This document shows, piece by piece, positions 2,591 through 59,770 of a stretch of DNA of 64,000 bases (within the stretch, counting starts at the first letter, position 1; every line of letters starts with the position of its first letter). The DNA comes from Candidatus Saccharimonadota bacterium (GTDB lineage: Bacteria > Patescibacteriota > Saccharimonadia > Saccharimonadales > SLHW01). The notes below the pieces were generated by a model, which was not told where the DNA came from, did not search any database, and was given only the letters and a program-made list of their open reading frames with translations. Position numbers and translations under genes: made by a program. The DNA is taken from positions 44,309 through 108,308 of the forward strand of contig JAGXIU010000002.1 of NCBI GenBank assembly GCA_024635455.1, written 5' to 3'.

Positions 2591-4336
2591 TTACTGATTT
2601 TGATTGGCTTGGCTTGGTGGCATCATCGGCGGTGGAACTGGTGGCGGCTGGTTTGGGTTCTGTACTTGTTGATTAGGCGCTGATGTGTTTTGTGTGTCAT
2701 TTGGATGAATATTTAGATGTACAGGCTGAGCGTTTAATGCTTCAACGGGTGGCAAAGCTTGATCGGGGTTCGTATTGGACGTATCCGCAGCATCCATAAT
2801 CGCTTGGCGGGCTTCATCTAACTCAGCCGGTGTCTCATTTGACCTATGACTCGGACTTGGAGCCGTGCTGTGAGCAGGAGCAAAGTTCATATCTGGCTTA
2901 CTTGATGCCTCTGCTTGATTGTTACTGTCACCAGTTTGCTGGTGAGCGCCAACAGCCTGCTCGATGTCAGAAAGCGTTTGTGTCGGACTTTGTGGCTCCT
3001 CATCTTGAGACTGTTCTTGGCCGCCTGTATTCTGCTCATTCTCTGGGCTACTTTTATCTCCTTGACTGTGCTCATCGCTATCTGTTTGCTGAGATGCGGA
3101 ATTGTGTGAAAGAATTCTTTCGTTTCTATGGTCAGATGAAGACAGGGGGTCAACAGGCTCTTCCTCATCAGAGTTGTTTGCGCTGTTAGATTGATCATCT
3201 GACTCTTCTGGCTCATCCGGTAGCATAGCCCCTTGGGGTTTTGTTACGATTTTTGGTAACGTATCGTGCGATGCCCCGCTGTTTTGCGCAAATTCATTAT
3301 TTTGATTTATAGATTGTTGGCTGGTGCTGTTTCCTGAGTTGTCGTCTACATTATCCTGATCCATAGCCTGCAGATTGCCGTGTTCATCTATGTGAATCTG
3401 GTGACCATCTACGTCGTCCCCAGATTGGTCGTGGCTAATATGAAGCGTGCCATCGTCCTTCTTTCTGTGTGAACGAGCCTCTTCTGAAGCCTCATCATCA
3501 AGCTGTTGATTTTGTTTTGCAGGTTCAGGTGCTGGTGGAGTCGGAGCCGGGGGCTCAGGTGCTGGTGCAGGTTCAGGTGCTGGTGGAGTCGGAGCCGGGG
3601 GCTGAAGCTTTTCAGCGACAAGTTGCTGGTCAGCTCCAGCTTTTAGCAACCGAGAACCGAGTGTCATACTAGCTGGATTGGTCTTTTCATTGCTGAAGCG
3701 ATCCGTTTCTGCGACAAGTCCGGTAAGGAATGCGGTGGCAGTTTGACCATCAAGTAGGTTTTCGCCAACTTCGTCAACCAGGTGTCCAAGCATTTCGCAT
3801 AAACTACTCGCTTGCTCATCAAGCCAGTTAATTGAGCCGGCAGAGCCATTTTGATTCATATTTATTGTTGCAACAGTTGCATCATGCAAGATTCGACCAT
3901 GACTCGATATGGCTTTGTCTATGTCTGTTTGCTCATGCACGCCAAGCGCGATTACCAGGTCAACGTTAAAATCACCTTGAGAAAAGTTCAAATCGCTCTC
4001 GTGAATCGATGTGCGGTATGGTGATATAAATATTTTTACCTGTGTGTCTTCTACTTTGTAGCGCAGCTTATCTGCCTTTGATCGATCAAGTGAGATAATA
4101 AAGTCTCGAAGTGAGTCAGTGTTCTTCTCTAGTGTTTTCTCGGGCTGTAAGAATGAGATAATCGGCGGTGTTTGACCGCTGAAAACAGCCGTGGCATGTT
4201 TGTTTAATTTGTTGAGCACTAGCGTCAGGCCAATTGCGCCAGACAACTGATCAACTGAGGGGTTATTACTAACCGTTACGAGTACGTTTGTAGCCTCTTT
4301 GAGGCGAGTGATAAGCTGTTGCTTTTGTTCGTTCAT
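2591..4336 (-). CDS. NrnA/DHH-like protein with degenerate catalytic motifs and a ~350-aa disordered P/Q/N/D/E/S-rich tail
   Basis: The N-terminal ~240 aa aligns by eye to DHH/DHHA1 phosphoesterases (VSNNPSVDQLSGAIGL, DLVIALGV, TINMNQNG, FLTGLVAETDRF). The position upstream of truB matches the nrnA position in many operons. The start was moved to ATG 4336 (MNEQKQQ). Confidence 0.6.
   Translation of the reverse strand: MNEQKQQLITRLKEATNVLVTVSNNPSVDQLSGAIGLTLVLNKLNKHATAVFSGQTPPIISFLQPEKTLEKNTDSLRDFIISLDRSKADKLRYKVEDTQVKIFISPYRTSIHESDLNFSQGDFNVDLVIALGVHEQTDIDKAISSHGRILHDATVATINMNQNGSAGSINWLDEQASSLCEMLGHLVDEVGENLLDGQTATAFLTGLVAETDRFSNEKTNPASMTLGSRLLKAGADQQLVAEKLQPPAPTPPAPEPAPAPEPPAPTPPAPEPAKQNQQLDDEASEEARSHRKKDDGTLHISHDQSGDDVDGHQIHIDEHGNLQAMDQDNVDDNSGNSTSQQSINQNNEFAQNSGASHDTLPKIVTKPQGAMLPDEPEESDDQSNSANNSDEEEPVDPLSSSDHRNERILSHNSASQQTDSDEHSQGDKSSPENEQNTGGQEQSQDEEPQSPTQTLSDIEQAVGAHQQTGDSNNQAEASSKPDMNFAPAHSTAPSPSHRSNETPAELDEARQAIMDAADTSNTNPDQALPPVEALNAQPVHLNIHPNDTQNTSAPNQQVQNPNQPPPVPPPMMPPSQANQNQ
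3519..3604. repeat. 48-bp tandem repeat (~1.8 copies) inside the coding sequence, encoding PAPEP/PAPTPP repeats
   Basis: gcaggttcaggtgctggtggagtcggagccgggggct occurs at 3519 and again at 3567, identical over 37 nt. Confidence 0.9.
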
Positions 4337-4553
4337 GTATTTTTGTAGTTTTTTTATTTTTTGGTATCTGTTAGTTATAGTACTACATAAGCACAAGTGT
4401 GTCTAGTAGGTGAAATATCGACGATTAGTTAGTCGTGAAACGATTCTTCATACCAGATGACATACTCTTTACAATTAGAATAAATAGTGTTACATTCAAA
4501 CCCGACTTTATTCTATTATCTAATATTTTAAGAAAGACAGGTCAGAAGTAACT

Positions 4554-54497: not shown

Positions 54498-54564
54498 TTT
54501 ATATATTTATGAGAGGTTCGACGAAAGCTTACTTCACTCAAGCTTAATCATGGCAAGTTGTTTG

Positions 54565-54991
54565 TCGGAGAGAGGGATGAACACTCAATGATAGACCGTC
54601 AGCTCGTGTTGTTTATATTCGAGAGGGATATCGGCTTCGCCTCTTCCGTTCAGGCTTACTCGAAGCAACCGTTCTTCACTAAAGCTACGAATAGCTTGGC
54701 TTCTGCGTGAGCCTTCGCTCCACCGAACGCCTCGGTACGTATTTTTTAGAAAAAAATACCCTCGGGCTTGAAGCCCTCTATCAAATAAAAAAGACCGACT
54801 AAAGCCAGTCTTCTTTATTTGGCGGAGAGAGAGGGATGAACACTCGATGATAGACTGCACGTTCCGTGCATTCCATCATCTCGCTATTTGTCGTCAAGTG
54901 GTAACTTGACAACAATCGAACCTGAGAACCGAATTCCTGCTTTCACTGGCGAGAAAGCTAAACCCGAGCACAAGGCTCGGGTCTATCTTCC
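54565..54991 (-). repeat. tRNA-Ser(CGA) trailer: conserved unit plus two further copies of the tRNA 3' end
   Basis: The 18-nt tRNA 3' end (54992..55009) recurs exactly at 54820..54837 and in degenerate form at 54565..54597. 54781..54991 is the inverted partner of 59081..59291. Confidence 0.85.
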
Positions 54992-55814: not shown

Positions 55815-55828
55815 TGGTACACCCGGCA
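55815..55828 (-). repeat. isolated 14-nt copy of the tRNA-Arg 3' end (att-like)
   Basis: tggtacacccggca is identical to 57645..57658, in the same orientation. Confidence 0.6.
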
Positions 55829-56002
55829 AGGACGAGTTGGGAACAAATTAAAGCGGAACTGATTGAAATTGGGCAACAGGTTAAAAAGAACCGAGGAACA
55901 AACTTCTTGTAGTCTAAGCGACAATAACTAAACCACGTCAATGAGTTATGTGAAAAGCCAGTAACACCTTTAGAGCTGTTGACAGCTTGCTTGTATTATG
56001 AT

Positions 56003-57181
56003 ATGATGTCGCTTATGTCAGTACAGCACGAAATGATGCCGCTTTTGGATCCTAGAGAAGTTAATCCACCGCCTTCGGAAAGGGTTCTTGCGCCAGATGA
56101 ACAGGTTCAGATTGACCTTGATGCTCCCCTTGCTGACAGTCAAGAAGTGCACGATAGGTTGGGTATACGAAGTAACTTAGTTGCTACCGTAAACGCTGGT
56201 AGTAAGAGCTTTTTAATTGTTGACTCTCGTAATACTCGCAGCAATAGGGATTTCTTTATTTCAGATGAAACCTTTTCAAAAGAAAACAGAATAGGATTCA
56301 AAGGTGTACTGGAAGACGAGCCAGTAGTCATAGGTCGTGGTCATCACACAGATAGATTCTCTTACCCAGCTACTGTTTCTAGAGAGCATTTTGAAGTTTC
56401 ATACACCGATGAAGCGTTATTTATTCGCAATCTACGACCAACTAACAAAACCACTGTAACGGCTCATTTAGCCTTAGAGCAGCAACACCAAGGGGTTTCC
56501 CCTCGTTACGCCGTTGAAGATATACGCACAATCCTAGTAGAAGACAGACTGCAAGCACACCCCGACTTTGACGAAAAAGATGAAACAGCCCCATACGGGT
56601 ACTATATGAATCACCAAATCTTAGGTAGAGCGTCTAAGTCAGTAGACGGCGGAGTATATTTGGGTGGTTCAGCTCGTGAAGCAATAGTAGTTGACGGCAA
56701 ATCCGTAGCTATGAAGCAGGTATATGAAGGTGTTGCAACAGAGTTGCGACAATCATTCCAAAAAAATGAAACTTTGCCAATGCAGTCTATCTTATTGAAG
56801 GTAATGCACAGAGTTCAAGAAGTGATGCCGTATGACGGTAGAAAAACAGAAGATATTAGCCGACAGCACCATGGTGATAAATTAGTCGGGCTTAGTACAT
56901 ATGTTAAAGAACGAGTTGGTGTTTGTAGACATCAAGGCTTATTGGCCGCCTACATTATTGAAAACCTTATTAAAGACGGTCATATGCTTGGAATAGTAGG
57001 TGTTGAACGTAATACTGTTAAAGATATGGGTGGAACGCACGCTTGGGCCGTTTACAAAACTAGCAGTAATGAAGCCGAAGAAGTAATTGTTGTTGACCCA
57101 GCTCAATCATTTGTCGGCACCAAAGCACAAGCACAGCGCGAAGGTCGGTGGGAATACCGCTTGACCACTGACAAATACTAG
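56003..57181 (+). CDS. FHA-domain protein with a C-terminal transglutaminase/papain-like Cys-His-Asp core
   Basis: The FHA region is VIGRGHHTDRF...VSREHFEV...LFIRNLRPTNKTTV. The C-terminal candidate triad is GVCRHQG, GTHAWAV and VVDPA. The first in-frame ATG is 56003; the ORF opens at TTG 55979. Confidence 0.65.
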   Translation: MMSLMSVQHEMMPLLDPREVNPPPSERVLAPDEQVQIDLDAPLADSQEVHDRLGIRSNLVATVNAGSKSFLIVDSRNTRSNRDFFISDETFSKENRIGFKGVLEDEPVVIGRGHHTDRFSYPATVSREHFEVSYTDEALFIRNLRPTNKTTVTAHLALEQQHQGVSPRYAVEDIRTILVEDRLQAHPDFDEKDETAPYGYYMNHQILGRASKSVDGGVYLGGSAREAIVVDGKSVAMKQVYEGVATELRQSFQKNETLPMQSILLKVMHRVQEVMPYDGRKTEDISRQHHGDKLVGLSTYVKERVGVCRHQGLLAAYIIENLIKDGHMLGIVGVERNTVKDMGGTHAWAVYKTSSNEAEEVIVVDPAQSFVGTKAQAQREGRWEYRLTTDKY

Positions 57182-57454
57182 TCTTAGTTTCTAAACTACT
57201 ACTGAAGCAAAAAAATGAGAGCTGTTATTGCTAAAACATAAAGAGCAAATTATTGACGAAGTTATGCAGCTCATTAACCAGCCAGACGAGTTACGGAACC
57301 AAGCTATCCTCAAGATACAGAAGGCTATCCAATGGTTAGTATTTCCGAACGGACTTGAGTGTGACTTCGGAACTGGTTTTTGAAACCAGTCCACTAAGCC
57401 AAACTCATCTGTTAATTTAAGAACTTGATAAAAAATTACCTGAAAATGCAAATT

Positions 57455-57505
57455 TGGTACACCCCTGCCCGATGTGATACATCGTATCAGGCGGGCGGCA
57501 GGATT
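57455..57505 (-). pseudogene. tRNA-Arg 3' stump split by a 32-nt insertion
   Basis: The minus-sense read is AATCCTGCCG-[CCCGCCTGATACGATGTATCACATCGGGCAGG]-GGTGTACCA, compared with the intact AATCCTGCCGGGTGTACCA. Confidence 0.8.
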
Positions 57506-57611
57506 ATCGCACACAATTGCTAAAGCATTTGCTCGGCCAAGCAAGGAAAACATAATGTGCCACCGGCACATTATGCCTACGGTCGCAGGTTCAAGCCAAC
57601 GACCTACCACG

Positions 57612-57638
57612 CAAAAACCCGACCAAAATGGTCGGGCC
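57612..57638 (-). terminator. rho-independent terminator after tRNA-Arg
   Basis: The minus-sense read is GGCCCGACC-atttt-GGTCGGG-TTTTT. It starts 7 nt after the CCA. Confidence 0.8.
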
Positions 57639-57644
57639 TTAGCG

Positions 57645-57721
57645 TGGTACACCCGGCAGGATTTGAACCTACGACCTTCTGTACCGCAAACAGACGCTCT
57701 ATCCAGCTGAGCTACGGGTGC
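57645..57721 (-). tRNA. tRNA-Arg(GCG), CCA encoded
   Basis: The hand fold is GCACCCG TA GCTC AGCTGGATA GAGC G TCTGT TTGCGGT ACAGA AGGTC GTAGG TTCAAAT CCTGC CGGGTGT A CCA. The anticodon loop TTGCGGT gives GCG. Confidence 0.85.
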
Positions 57722-57730
57722 TTAATTTAT

Positions 57731-57973
57731 CTATTGTATTCTTGTGAAAAGTACTTTTCTAGCATTACCACTCTTTTTTACCTGACTTTCTCTTTTTCGT
57801 GCTAGCCCTAACTCTCGGTATGCTTCGTAATAAATCAACTCTATGGGTAATCTTGATTTTGTAGAAGCAACCTTACCATCTTGATGCTCTTTCAGTCTAC
57901 GCTTCAAATTTGATGTTGAACCGTAATAAAACTTATTGTCGGCACAAGAGTGCAGAATATAAAAATAGTACAT
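57731..57973 (-). CDS. small GIY-YIG (URI-domain) nuclease family protein
   Basis: 80 aa, with YYFYILHS...KFYYGSTSNLKRRLKEH...E...E motifs. Its stop lies 9 nt upstream of tRNA-Arg. Confidence 0.8.
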   Translation of the reverse strand: MYYFYILHSCADNKFYYGSTSNLKRRLKEHQDGKVASTKSRLPIELIYYEAYRELGLARKRESQVKKSGNARKVLFTRIQ

Positions 57974-57980
57974 TTATTAA

Positions 57981-57988
57981 ATTATACA
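57981..57988 (-). promoter_or_regulatory. extended -10 (TGTATAAT) directly upstream of the GIY-YIG ATG; likely a leaderless or near-leaderless transcript
   Basis: The minus-sense read is aaaaaaTGTATAATttaataaATG. Confidence 0.5.
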
Positions 57989-58000
57989 TTTTTTAATGTT

Positions 58001-58051
58001 CCAGCTGACCCGCCTGATACGATGTATCACATCGGGCAGGGCTACGGGTGC
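58001..58051 (-). pseudogene. tRNA-Arg 5' stump split by the inverted copy of the same 32-nt sequence
   Basis: The minus-sense read is GCACCCGTAGC-[CCTGCCCGATGTGATACATCGTATCAGGCGGG]-TCAGCTGGA, compared with the intact GCACCCGTAGCTCAGCTGGA. Confidence 0.8.
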
Positions 58052-58137
58052 ATATATGTGTAACGCGTAAATGATCGAGCTTTTGCCTCATGGGCAAACG
58101 GAGCAGGGGAAACTATAGCATATAACAGAGGTTATTA

Positions 58138-58698
58138 CTAGAAACGTATTTTACGCATCAAGTTATCAATAGCGTCAGGGTCGCTATCCTCCATCGGTAA
58201 ATAATCAGAAATGGCTTCGATGATTTGATCCTCCTGATCAGGGGGGTAATATACGCGCAACTCAGTGGTAAAACGCTTTATTGGTAGCAAAAATATAGAT
58301 GATATGGCGCCTTCGTCATGTACAGCAAAAGACTTGAATGAGTCGAACTCGTATAGCCTACCGCTTACATCAATGCCGCTCGGTGTTATCTCATACTGCC
58401 GAACTTCTGGTTTACGTGTAGCCAACACCCCGAAAGATGCGCCAGCAATCAAAACTACGATAAGTGATATAGCATCACGCGTTAGCAGATAAACAAGCAC
58501 AGACAATAAAGCGAGGCCAATCCCAAACGATACATACCAGGAAAGACTTTTGTGGTGCGCGATAAATTCAGAGGCAGACCAGCTTACCAGGCTCCCTCTT
58601 GGTTCAGGGGATACCTGTTGAGCATCTTGGCTGTTAGAGTTCTTTCTAGTAATCTGGGCTTCAAGTTGTTCGATTGTCGGCTCTTGCTGATCCTGCAT
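58138..58698 (-). CDS. hypothetical two-TM membrane protein
   Basis: 186 aa. It has two adjacent TM segments (WYVSFGIGLALLSVLVYLL and ISLIVVLIAGASFGVLA) and a soluble C-terminal domain. Confidence 0.55.
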   Translation of the reverse strand: MQDQQEPTIEQLEAQITRKNSNSQDAQQVSPEPRGSLVSWSASEFIAHHKSLSWYVSFGIGLALLSVLVYLLTRDAISLIVVLIAGASFGVLATRKPEVRQYEITPSGIDVSGRLYEFDSFKSFAVHDEGAISSIFLLPIKRFTTELRVYYPPDQEDQIIEAISDYLPMEDSDPDAIDNLMRKIRF

Positions 58699-58914: not shown

Positions 58915-58917
58915 GGA

Positions 58918-58958
58918 GAGAAGCGGTCATATCTTTATGGTATGGCCGTTTCTCTTTT
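58918..58958 (+). terminator. rho-independent terminator after tRNA-Ser(GCT)
   Basis: The hairpin is gagaagcggtcata-tctttatgg-tatggccgtttctc, followed by tttt. Confidence 0.7.
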
Positions 58959-59080
58959 GGAGAAAGGATGCGAACCCGTATCCGCTGGAAGTGGAAGGGT
59001 TCGGTGACACAAGCTGACGCGCAGATGCTTGCATCGAGCATCAGTGCAGTGGCAACGATGTCATCCCTCCCTCTCCGCCA
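58959..59080 (+). repeat. type-A trailer unit ending in an exact second copy of the tRNA-Ser(GCT) 3' end
   Basis: 58998..59062 matches 59650..59714 with 8 mismatches in ~66 nt. The 18-nt sequence atccctccctctccgcca sits at 59063..59080. Confidence 0.85.
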
Positions 59081-59291
59081 GGAAGATAGACCCGAGCCTT
59101 GTGCTCGGGTTTAGCTTTCTCGCCAGTGAAAGCAGGAATTCGGTTCTCAGGTTCGATTGTTGTCAAGTTAGTACTTGACGACAAATAGCGAGATGACGGA
59201 ATGCGCGGAACGTGCAGTCTATCATTGAGTGTTCATCCCTCCCTCTCCGCCAAATATAGAAGACTGGCTTTAGTCGGTCTTTTTTATTTGG
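59081..59291 (+). repeat. type-B trailer unit (hairpin-bearing left arm, third tRNA 3'-end copy, terminator); inverted partner of 54781..54991
   Basis: There are about 8-9 mismatches over ~211 nt against the reverse complement of 54781..54991. The core copy lies at 59235..59252. Confidence 0.9.
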
Positions 59292-59579: not shown

Positions 59580-59732
59580 GGAAGGTAGACCCGAGCCTTG
59601 TGCTCGGGTTTAGCTTTCTCGCCAGAAAGTATGGAGTCGAGCCCGATGCGGTTCGGTGACACAAGCTGGCGCACAGAAGCTCGCTTCGAGCACCAGCGCA
59701 GTGGCAACAATGTCATCCCACCCCTTCCGCCA
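59580..59732 (+). repeat. compact trailer unit (B-type left arm + A-type right arm) ending in a second copy of the tRNA-Ser(TGA) 3' end
   Basis: The left-arm hairpin gacccgagccttgtgctcgggtttagctttctcgcc lies at 59588..59623. The core atcccaccccttccgcca at 59715..59732 is identical to 59562..59579. Confidence 0.85.
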
Positions 59733-59770
59733 AACAAAATGAATCTACCTTGTGTAGGTTCTTTTTGTTT
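59733..59770 (+). terminator. rho-independent terminator closing the tRNA-Ser(TGA) trailer
   Basis: The hairpin is gaatctac-cttgt-gtaggttc, followed by tttttg. Confidence 0.7.

Follow-up and report, generated by a model that had tools for sequence, protein, structure and literature searches.

How a small nuclease gene and an intact tRNA gene come to lie between broken pieces of another copy of that same tRNA gene is the question raised by a locus in a 64-kb stretch of DNA from a Candidatus Saccharimonadota bacterium. This stretch, called the window here, is the genome sequence that was searched. Read on the minus strand, the locus begins with the first 20 nucleotides (nt) of a tRNA-Arg gene, continues with an open reading frame (ORF) of 80 amino acids (aa) for a GIY-YIG nuclease and a complete tRNA-Arg, and ends with a 3' piece of the same tRNA, and each of the two tRNA pieces is interrupted by one arm of an inverted repeat, designated X and X'. 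An earlier note had read this layout as a resident tRNA-Arg that lost its middle to a cassette of about 0.5 kb, which supplied the nuclease together with a replacement tRNA-Arg. Our results support a mobile GIY-YIG cassette that is associated with tRNA genes and sits beside a functional tRNA, but not a cassette that brought the tRNA-Arg with it, since alleles free of the ORF show that this tRNA is ancestral. We consider it rather probable, with due reserve, that the locus belongs to a widespread family of minute selfish cassettes found in Patescibacteria; the parts of such a cassette would be an ORF of ~80 aa coding for a bare GIY-YIG catalytic domain and short GC-rich palindromes with conserved arms. 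The features of the locus, in the order in which they are read, are as follows (L001 is the corresponding locus of a sister lineage).

58112 to 58137, minus strand: presumed promoter region of the resident tRNA-Arg (CTGTTATATGCTATAGT), directly 3' of the stop codon of a 186-aa gene.
58041 to 58051, minus strand: first part of the 5' stump, GCACCCGTAGC, tRNA-Arg nt 1-11; 11/11 identical to the intact gene and 11/11 kept in L001.
58009 to 58040, minus strand: palindrome X (CCTGCCCG...CAGGCGGG), 32 nt, between nt 11 and 12 of the dead tRNA-Arg copy.
58000 to 58008, minus strand: second part of the 5' stump, TCAGCTGGA, tRNA-Arg nt 12-20; 9/9 identical to the intact gene.
57981 to 57988, minus strand: extended -10-like element TGTATAAT, 7 nt before the ATG; read from the sequence and conserved in L001.
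57731 to 57973, minus strand: 80-aa GIY-YIG ORF (Pfam PF01541).
57733 to 57761, minus strand: promoter-like TAGAAA-17-TACAAT inside the 3' end of the ORF, stopping 11 nt before the tRNA +1; a consensus match only.
57645 to 57721, minus strand: intact tRNA-Arg with anticodon GCG, starting 9 nt after the ORF stop; called by ARAGORN and matched by Rfam at 65.4 bits; the functional gene.
57613 to 57638, minus strand: intrinsic-terminator-like hairpin and T-run directly 3' of the tRNA; read from the sequence.
57506 to 57612, minus strand: conserved module of ~100 nt between the tRNA-Arg terminator and the 3' stump.
57496 to 57505, minus strand: first part of the 3' stump, AATCCTGCCG, tRNA-Arg nt 58-67; the end of the older module.
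57464 to 57495, minus strand: palindrome X', reverse complement of X at 32/32 positions; it separates nt 67 from nt 68 in the 3' stump.
57455 to 57463, minus strand: second part of the 3' stump, GGTGTACCA, tRNA-Arg nt 68-76.

All of the parts named in the earlier note are found where it placed them, apart from the last base of the 5' stump, which is 58000 and not 58001, and the inverted repeat is one base longer than the 32 of 32 reported there (33/33 between 57463-57495 and 58009-58041, which are 513 nt apart). The stumps match tRNA nt 1-11 and 12-20 and nt 58-67 and 68-76 exactly, nt 21-57 are absent, and X and X' are clean 32-nt insertions with no target duplication. X folds as a hairpin (-7.5 kcal/mol with DNA parameters, z=-3.05), and the 32-mer, searched at up to 3 mismatches, has 2 copies in the window against 0 expected from shuffles. 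No recombinase or integrase was found between or beside the stumps, where the nuclease ORF is the only ORF. An assembly artefact was ruled out by the same layout in independent assemblies. A dispersed repeat was also rejected, as the 32-mer occurs only twice in the window and the exact 32-mer is found elsewhere in the JGI metagenome contigs on a single contig, which has the same two-copy arrangement. A split or trans-spliced tRNA joined through X:X' pairing was worked through by hand and discarded: nt 11 would meet nt 68, the register of the acceptor stem would not be restored and nt 21-57 would be missing.

The origin of the intact tRNA and of the two stumps became clear from the syntenic loci of relatives, which were reached via homologues of the upstream 186-aa gene and share the order HSP20, ComF-like gene, two tRNA-Ser genes, 186-aa gene and tRNA-Arg. 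Relatives with an uninterrupted tRNA-Arg at this place, which the earlier note had proposed to look for, do exist, and the locus is found in three states. Filled alleles are those of the window, L001-L008, L093 and L094. Empty alleles (L089, L090, L097 and L098) consist of promoter, short leader and tRNA-Arg(GCG), with no ORF, 5' stump or X, and stump-only alleles (L095 and L096) have nt 1-19 with 2 mismatches at ~100 nt 5' of the intact tRNA and lack both ORF and X. Across filled, empty and stump-only loci the promoter region is homologous, and in the alignment the 5' stump of the window sits behind it; CTGTTATATGCTATAGT itself is 96% identical to L001 and aligns with the region 5' of the uninterrupted tRNA-Arg in L089, L090 and L097. 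The intact tRNA-Arg(GCG) is identical in L001 at 77/77 positions and is found at this syntenic place in the empty alleles too. The empty and stump-only alleles therefore mark the tRNA-Arg as ancestral and the ORF as the insertion, and the presence/absence polymorphism at one homologous locus is of the kind expected of a homing endonuclease gene.

The 3' stump has a different history. Together with the module it is present in the ORF-free L090 and L095, where it is uninterrupted and has no X' (the L090 copy lies at 4428-4447), and the module in these two loci lies ~150-250 nt after the tRNA and ends in a copy of the tRNA 3' end that is followed by a terminator. Because the 3' stump occurs without X' in relatives that have no ORF, it is an older scar rather than the second half of a broken gene, and X' entered a pre-existing stump. 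This finding, along with the analogous modules that follow tRNA-Ser genes in the window, contradicts the view that the two stumps are halves of one resident tRNA that lost its middle. Judging from these alleles, the ancestral state was a promoter, a short leader, tRNA-Arg(GCG), a terminator and an older module of ~100 nt ending in a copy of the tRNA 3' end. The ORF then went into the transcription unit of the tRNA in sense orientation, with a duplication of tRNA nt 1-20 and possibly also of the last bases of the leader, and X at nt 11/12 is an additional insertion. Direct repeats of tRNA nt 1-20 now lie on both sides of the ORF, the upstream copy being a dead stump behind the old promoter and the downstream copy a part of the sole functional gene. 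The tRNA-Arg that reads CGN codons has the anticodon GCG, instead of the usual bacterial, inosine-forming ACG, in the window and in every relative examined (L089, L090, L092, L095 and L097).

Signals for transcription of the ORF and the tRNA are suggested by position and similarity. The element TGTATAAT is a possible promoter of the ORF itself, in which case the mRNA that starts from it may be leaderless; a consensus promoter scan made no call there because a -35 hexamer is absent. The TACAAT in the 3' end of the ORF aligns with CACAAT/CAAAAT just 5' of the tRNA in the empty alleles, and promoter-like sites in the region were no more numerous in the consensus scan than in shuffled sequences. 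A terminator scan of 57300-58250 called no terminator despite the visible hairpin and T-run after the tRNA, and L001 has a different hairpin with T6 at that position.

Linkage between the small GIY-YIG family and tRNA genes, the lack of which elsewhere would have spoken against the reading in the earlier note, was confirmed well beyond this locus. With a search profile built from 9 homologue sequences, a scan of one genome per species returned 556 relatives of the ORF, and the results given here cover the best 80, from 80 species. These loci are mostly from Patescibacteria, with a few contigs in bins labelled Bacteroidota (Cytophagales, Roseivirgaceae), Gammaproteobacteria, Clostridia, Planctomycetaceae, Bdellovibrionales and Margulisiibacteriota. 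An adjacent tRNA gene (within 350 nt) is present at 47/80 loci, and all but one of the 55 such tRNAs (54/55) are on the strand of the ORF. Up to 350 nt from the ORF there are 1.02 tRNA genes per kb, 14 times the 0.073 per kb found beyond 700 nt, and at least 15 tRNA identities adjoin ORFs of the family. The common layout is a partial or disabled copy of the adjacent tRNA interrupted by a GC-rich palindrome, the ORF ~13-40 nt later and an intact tRNA a few bases past the stop codon, with some variation in order.

The palindrome proved to be a component of the whole family and not the unrelated dispersed repeat that the earlier note had considered as a possible refutation. Palindromes that share the arms of X are found in both orientations and in the contexts of tRNA-Lys, tRNA-Trp and tRNA-Arg; they agree in their imperfect positions, and their centre is variable and self-complementary. 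Palindromes with common arms are present at two tRNA loci of one genome. Insertion between nt 11 and 12 is seen in the window (Arg-GCG), L015 (Arg-CCT), L100 (Arg-TCG), L012 (Lys-TTT), and L029 and L088 (both Trp), and this position is the preferred site of the X palindrome family in at least six tRNA contexts. In copies of tRNA-Trp and tRNA-Cys, a second palindrome family, CCCCGCCnnnTCGCGAnnnGGCGGGG, takes the place of about nt 37-55; in this family 4/10 pairs are changed on both sides and 96.7% of cells are paired, a level that 0/500 shuffles reached. Such covariation is also expected from a DNA palindrome bound by protein, so that an RNA structure is not implied. Most members of the family have a single palindrome, for example L011, L012, L015 and L029. 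Inverted pairs of palindromes flank the ORF and tRNA in L081 (24/24 exact reverse complement) and L088, and flank the ORF in L078 and L024. In L103 (2046-2122), L010 (3262-3297) and L016 (2705-2745), the first 5-7 nt of the tRNA are copied directly 5' of the intact tRNA and followed by a palindrome, the distal arm of which overlaps the true 5' end of the tRNA; in L103 this unit is tandemly duplicated.

Two loci are informative on how tRNA copies and ORFs can be gained or lost. In L099 (1312-1740) the ORF overlaps an intact tRNA-Lys(CTT) that starts with GGGTCCA, and 12 nt further on lies a second tRNA-Lys of another allele, with compensated differences in the T-stem and the acceptor (...CTGGCCC), which is missing its first bases and has an X-type palindrome between nt 24 and 25. 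This arrangement suggests that an imported tRNA-Lys replaced the resident gene, so the replacement of a tRNA envisaged in the earlier note fits L099, but it does not apply to the ancestral tRNA-Arg of the window. In L100 (425-641), nt 1-11, an X-type palindrome, nt 12-18 and ~95 nt of other sequence precede a tRNA-Arg(TCG), and there is no ORF. The same genome also holds a P0003-type cassette, and the ends of the ~95-nt spacer resemble the sequences that flank the window ORF before its ATG and after its stop codon. The tRNA-Arg(TCG) unit of L100 is probably a derivative from which the ORF was deleted.

A further form of the family is bracketed tightly by inverted repeats. About 20 or more of the 80 ORFs lie between inverted repeats of 13-27 bp, and 4/80 are inside 23S rRNA genes as defined by the Rfam large-subunit rRNA model (L023 2967-3272, L036 1338-1630, and L040 and L041, both 2981-3273), where the ORF is exactly bracketed by repeats of 18-21 bp, placed immediately ahead of its ATG and immediately past its stop codon. 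The insertion in L023 seems to lie at the helix-25 region, by comparison with the Escherichia coli 23S sequence. L041 has, 125 nt upstream, an inverted-repeat pair with similar arms and no ORF (2733-2856). Other bracketed ORFs are located at the extreme end of a tRNA, 5' or 3', where 7-9 nt of its terminal sequence are repeated, a 9-nt repeat flanks the ORF-containing element in L026, and inverted-repeat pairs without an ORF as well as lone palindromes occur near ORFs of the family. On this comparative evidence the family has a patchy distribution in relatives, passes from one tRNA identity to another and into rRNA, and includes forms without an ORF.

Comparison with the sister lineage indicates which parts of the window locus are maintained. 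The closest homologue of the ORF, that of L001, has 83% protein identity, the same order of parts recurs in at least 10 independent contigs of this lineage from JGI and ENA, and the source annotations of the homologues are Saccharibacteria/Patescibacteria. Between the window and L001 the ORF has a dN/dS of 0.086 with dS ~1.26, and identity is 59% in the leader, 46% in the terminator region, 53% in the downstream flank and 59% at third codon positions of the ORF. The four stump pieces are identical at 37/39 positions, X at 32/32 and X' at 31/32, which makes 63/64 for both palindromes, and the sole L001 difference in X' sits in the loop and is uncompensated in X. Because neutral sites are ~55% identical, X and X' are under selection and are not neutral scars, and on these comparisons we conclude that both the palindromes and the ORF are under purifying selection. 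The uniformity of the stumps could come from gene conversion by the intact tRNA; the identity of X between lineages is not explicable in that way.

The protein itself is a small member of the GIY-YIG superfamily. The ORF product matches Pfam PF01541 (GIY-YIG) with E=1.4e-14 and 54.6 bits (cut-off 22.6) over residues 1-71 of 80, and Y3, Y5, G18, R26, H30 and E62 are invariant in 35 homologues, with Y16 nearly so; both the profile and the predicted catalytic residues place it in the superfamily. The closest solved structures are the UPF0213 proteins 1zg2 (BH0048, 4.5e-12) and 1ywl (EF2693, 4.4e-11), followed by the nuclease domains of SLX1, and by these matches the product is classed as a single-domain, Slx1-like protein of the UPF0213/YhbQ type with no extra domain. 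The catalytic domain covers the whole 80-aa protein in Pfam, leaving no DNA-binding or recognition module, so that the long-site specificity of I-TevI or Seg proteins is unlikely and a structure-specific action would be expected. The NCBIfam grpIintron_endo model scores 22.4 bits against the ORF (cut-off 56). A phage or defence origin was rejected, as no PHROG (phage) or PADLOC (defence) family matched the ORF product. In the alignment of the 35 homologues, some database entries end in C-terminal tails of the type ...SSSAG or ...GP. The SSAG-type tails look like an annotation artefact in which the ORF call was read through into the D-arm of the downstream tRNA (TAGCTCAGCTGG), as the junction between ORF and tRNA is tight.

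Taken together, these results lead us to propose a mechanism for the family. A nuclease that has no DNA-binding domain is likely to be structure-specific, like Slx1, and it would probably act on the palindromes, as hairpin or cruciform, or on the DNA of tRNA and rRNA genes. Repair of the breaks by recombination would copy the ORF and palindromes into the cognate tRNA genes of other genomes, in a manner similar to homing, and the palindromes without an ORF would be non-autonomous relatives of the bracketed form found in 23S rRNA genes and at tRNA ends. Surviving insertions would leave one intact tRNA, the second copy being either created or imported, and since only insertions that spare one intact tRNA survive, dead tRNA pieces would gather palindromes. 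The tight junction between ORF and tRNA would secure transcription of the ORF and make its loss costly.

Several observations weigh against this explanation. Palindromes elsewhere are flanked by 5-9-nt repeats of tRNA ends (L010, L016, L056 and L078), none is present at X and X', and a single mechanism is not evident. The window ORF also lacks the tight, short inverted repeats of the rRNA and tRNA-end forms; it is bracketed by X/X' alone, a repeat within which the tRNA and the module lie as well. Partial self-duplicates occur at 6/23 tRNAs far from an ORF, and stumps alone are therefore not specific to the ORF, and the alignment of the ~100-nt spacer between stump and tRNA in L095 with a decayed ORF was not convincing. 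Conservation of X and X' over their whole length, loop included, exceeds what a need for structure only would require and would also fit RNA-RNA pairing. Since the intact tRNA of a carrier keeps every tRNA-internal site, self-immunity is left unexplained. Finally, what is proposed here on cleavage activity, target and movement is a prediction from sequence.

Three other explanations were weighed against a family of small selfish cassettes. The one that deserves the most attention, although we think it unlikely, acts at the RNA level and is compatible with such a family: in read-through transcripts X and X' could form a 33-bp stem that is cut by RNase III, as happens with intervening sequences of 23S rRNA, to free an ORF-tRNA RNA from the dead tRNA pieces, or a small RNA from the module could pair its X' with X in the 5' untranslated region of the mRNA and repress the nuclease, like the antisense RNA of a type I toxin-antitoxin system. 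X lies 26 nt 5' of the ATG and palindromes of the family are regularly ~13-40 nt before the start codon, a promoter-like site is present in the module upstream of X', the ORFs in 23S rRNA genes, like many others, are enclosed in the loop of a long stem that the flanking inverted repeats form, L081 has no terminator between the tRNA and the second palindrome, and conservation of all 32 nt of both copies, loops included (63/64), is what complementary RNAs require. However, transcripts that contain both X and X' would be rare, given the terminator-like hairpin and T-run that follow the tRNA in the window and in L001, and the one change of L001 in the loop of X' has no counterpart in X. Most relatives have one palindrome, and its orientation at a given tRNA position differs between loci (L012 and L015 as opposed to the window and L029), which speaks against a strand-specific role of the RNA.

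Closer to the earlier note is a single composite element with X/X' as terminal inverted repeats, carrying the nuclease and a replacement tRNA-Arg and inserted in a resident tRNA-Arg that lost its middle, which we regard as quite improbable. It would account for the perfect inverted repeats, for outer (nt 1-11 and 68-76) and inner flanks that are all tRNA-Arg, and for the conservation of both arms well above background, as would be expected of active element ends. L081 and L088 also have inverted palindrome pairs around ORF and tRNA, in L009 a 5' stump with a palindrome stands upstream and a palindrome-like sequence with nt 67-77 downstream, and in L099 the tRNA linked to the ORF differs from the adjacent truncated copy that bears the palindrome. 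Yet the 3' stump and module without X' in the ORF-free L090 and L095 (the former with no 5' stump either) do not fit an insertion between two halves of a gene, and the tRNA-Arg at the same syntenic position in the empty alleles was not imported. Simple insertion also does not predict tRNA nt 12-20 and 58-67 inside the supposed ends, most X-type members (L011, L012, L015 and L029) are single-copy, and the 5' pseudo-copy (GGGCCTG) and 3' stump (TGGGCCC) of L009 cannot derive from one tRNA. The least probable of the three, in our judgement very doubtful, is a domesticated, immobile system at the level of the host, in which a housekeeping UPF0213 protein is expressed from tRNA operons, the palindromes are regulatory or mRNA-stabilising hairpins or operators, and the stumps result from tRNA duplication and integrase scars. 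Strong purifying selection on ORF and palindromes, the strict sense orientation in tRNA transcription units, the occurrence of UPF0213 proteins in many bacteria and the 3' stumps that are common at tRNA genes with no ORF nearby are in keeping with it; E. coli yhbQ is not known to be linked to a tRNA gene. Nevertheless, a housekeeping role is at odds with an ORF that is patchy among close syntenic relatives, with a family found beside at least 15 tRNA species and in 23S rRNA genes in many phyla, with same-armed palindromes that are found in various tRNA contexts and, in one genome, at two tRNA loci, with derivatives that have no ORF, and with tRNA copies of different alleles side by side in L099.

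The proposed family of selfish cassettes has points in common with several known systems. All GIY-YIG proteins in rRNA genes of the candidate phyla radiation (CPR) were reported to lie in insertions that belong to neither of the two intron groups, I and II (Tsurumaki et al., J Bacteriol 2024, PMC11270868). These intervening sequences share the protein family with the window, and the ORFs of the 23S relatives described here are in an inverted-repeat loop with no ribozyme. That report differs in making no mention of tRNA genes, palindromes or duplicated targets, and the window ORF, unlike those of the CPR rRNA insertions, is beside a palindrome and not inside one. In contrast to rRNA insertions, the tRNA host gene cannot tolerate fragmentation, and dead and intact copies therefore coexist. 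Insertions in tRNA genes of Patescibacteria, some of them with endonuclease genes, are also known as group I introns, the endonucleases of which are of the HNH, LAGLIDADG and PD-(D/E)XK types and not GIY-YIG (PMC13011429); the window locus differs from them in having no ribozyme and an interrupted copy that is truncated and cannot be spliced into a tRNA. A group I intron or other known RNA was rejected on similar grounds: apart from the tRNA, no Rfam match reached the gathering score, no Rfam intron family was found at the gathering score or at E<=1, the stumps have no nt 21-57, and the one weak match at the locus, naRNA4 (E=0.23), is below threshold.

The Seg proteins of T-even phages are ~200 aa or more in length and carry DNA-binding modules. 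The nearest functional analogue is T4 SegB, a free-standing, non-intron GIY-YIG gene among tRNA genes that is variable in its presence between relatives and is reported to be required for the preferred inheritance of the T4 tRNA gene region (PMC2330249). The window protein differs from SegB in being a bare 80-aa catalytic domain in a cellular host, and SegB is not known to have palindromes or duplicated target pieces; a module for recognition of a long site, as expected in a homing endonuclease, is absent from the window protein. UPF0213/YhbQ (COG2827) and Slx1 are similar in size to the window protein and share the conserved Y, Y, G, R, H and E. UPF0213 has no established function, and no linkage to tRNA genes was found for it in the literature; Slx1 differs in having the partner Slx4 and a RING domain, and no partner is evident for the window ORF.

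As in integrative elements that target tRNA genes, the tRNA is kept intact by partial duplication and a stump is left, and the 3' stumps of the window resemble attachment-site scars. The cassette differs from these elements in having no integrase, in duplicating the 5' end (nt 1-20) and not the 3' end, and in measuring only ~0.3 kb; a direct repeat of the tRNA 3' part that bounds an insert is found at the downstream scars and not at the ORF cassette, and a cassette driven by an integrase was rejected, given that it contains no recombinase. Repetitive extragenic palindromes (REP) with their associated tyrosine transposases (RAYT), palindromic elements derived from the IS200/IS605 insertion sequences (IS) and miniature inverted-repeat transposable elements (MITEs) likewise are short imperfect palindromes with conserved arms, with or without a gene, in several copies and in either orientation. 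Here, in contrast, the sole associated protein is a GIY-YIG protein and not a Y1/HUH or DDE transposase, so the Y1 HUH transposase of REP/RAYT systems is missing, and terminal inverted repeats with a target duplication of fixed length, typical of MITEs and IS, are not seen either, as there is no duplication at X/X' and 5-9 nt are duplicated elsewhere. Also unlike those elements, copies in the DNA examined were only in or beside tRNA-derived sequence (two of them, L016 and L100, with no adjacent ORF), and there are 2 copies in 64 kb. No description of tRNA-linked UPF0213 cassettes was found in a literature search that covered mainly open-access journals.

A broader claim is possible, though we would not call it probable, namely that these loci represent a new class of mobile element: palindrome-bounded units similar to intervening sequences, with or without an 80-aa Slx1-like GIY-YIG gene inside or next to the palindrome, that would colonise tRNA and rRNA genes, disable one tRNA copy through insertion of a palindrome and be tied to the surviving or imported copy in such a way that the host cannot shed the element without losing an essential tRNA. 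If true, this would give the UPF0213 family its first function and rRNA intervening sequences an origin. UPF0213/YhbQ proteins are widespread and structurally solved and have no known function, and the consistent habitat, in sense orientation within tRNA and rRNA transcription units and beside conserved palindromes, makes a function testable. The origin and spread of bacterial rRNA intervening sequences is an old open question, for which palindromic forms with and without an ORF are a concrete candidate. The tRNA-linked form would be a selfish gene that survives in an essential single-copy gene by partial duplication of its target, and possibly by exchange of the resident copy for another, in bacteria whose genomes are the smallest known. 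For annotation, the results mean that tRNA finders miss dead tRNA copies that bear palindromes and that the ORF is sometimes read through into the tRNA.

The sequences downstream of the tRNA-Arg add a separate record of insertion at tRNA genes. The module at 57506-57612 starts with an inverted copy of the variable/T-arm region of tRNA-Arg (TTGAACCTGCGACC) and contains, by consensus scan, a promoter-like TTGGCT-18-CATAAT. The module is 80% identical between the window and L001, with paired changes in the CATAATGTGCC/GGCACATTATG hairpin, and its hairpins are compensatory between the two, ATAATGTGCC...GGCACATTAT against ATACTGCGCC...GGCGCAGTAT; it may encode a small structured RNA. Further downstream there is one more stump:

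55815 to 55830, minus strand: third 3' stump of tRNA-Arg, CTTGCCGGGTGTACCA, a member of repeat family D7, followed by a terminator and the flank.

The terminator and flank after this stump match those found immediately after the intact tRNA in L001. The 1.6-kb segment in between (55831-57454) is bounded by direct copies of the tRNA-Arg 3' end, is absent from L001 and carries a gene for a 400-aa protein with a forkhead-associated (FHA) domain (55979-57181, plus strand). From its boundaries, this segment looks like an integrated element with no recognisable integrase.

Similar structures follow the three tRNA-Ser genes of the window (58915-59255 and 59580-59735, plus strand; 54560-54990, minus strand), each of which is succeeded by a terminator and one or two modules. 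The tRNA-Ser modules are ~100-170 nt long and end in ...CGATGTCATC and the 3' end of their own tRNA (for example ATCCCTCCCTCTCCGCCA), after which there is another terminator. Judged by these repeated ends, the 3' stumps are read as marks of repeated integration at tRNA 3' ends. The tRNA-Ser modules look like attachment-site scars or miniature integrative elements, or could possibly be small RNA genes with a tRNA-like 3' end. A stretch of 248 nt is common to two of the tRNA-Ser module loci at 94% identity, and L001 has modules of the same kind.

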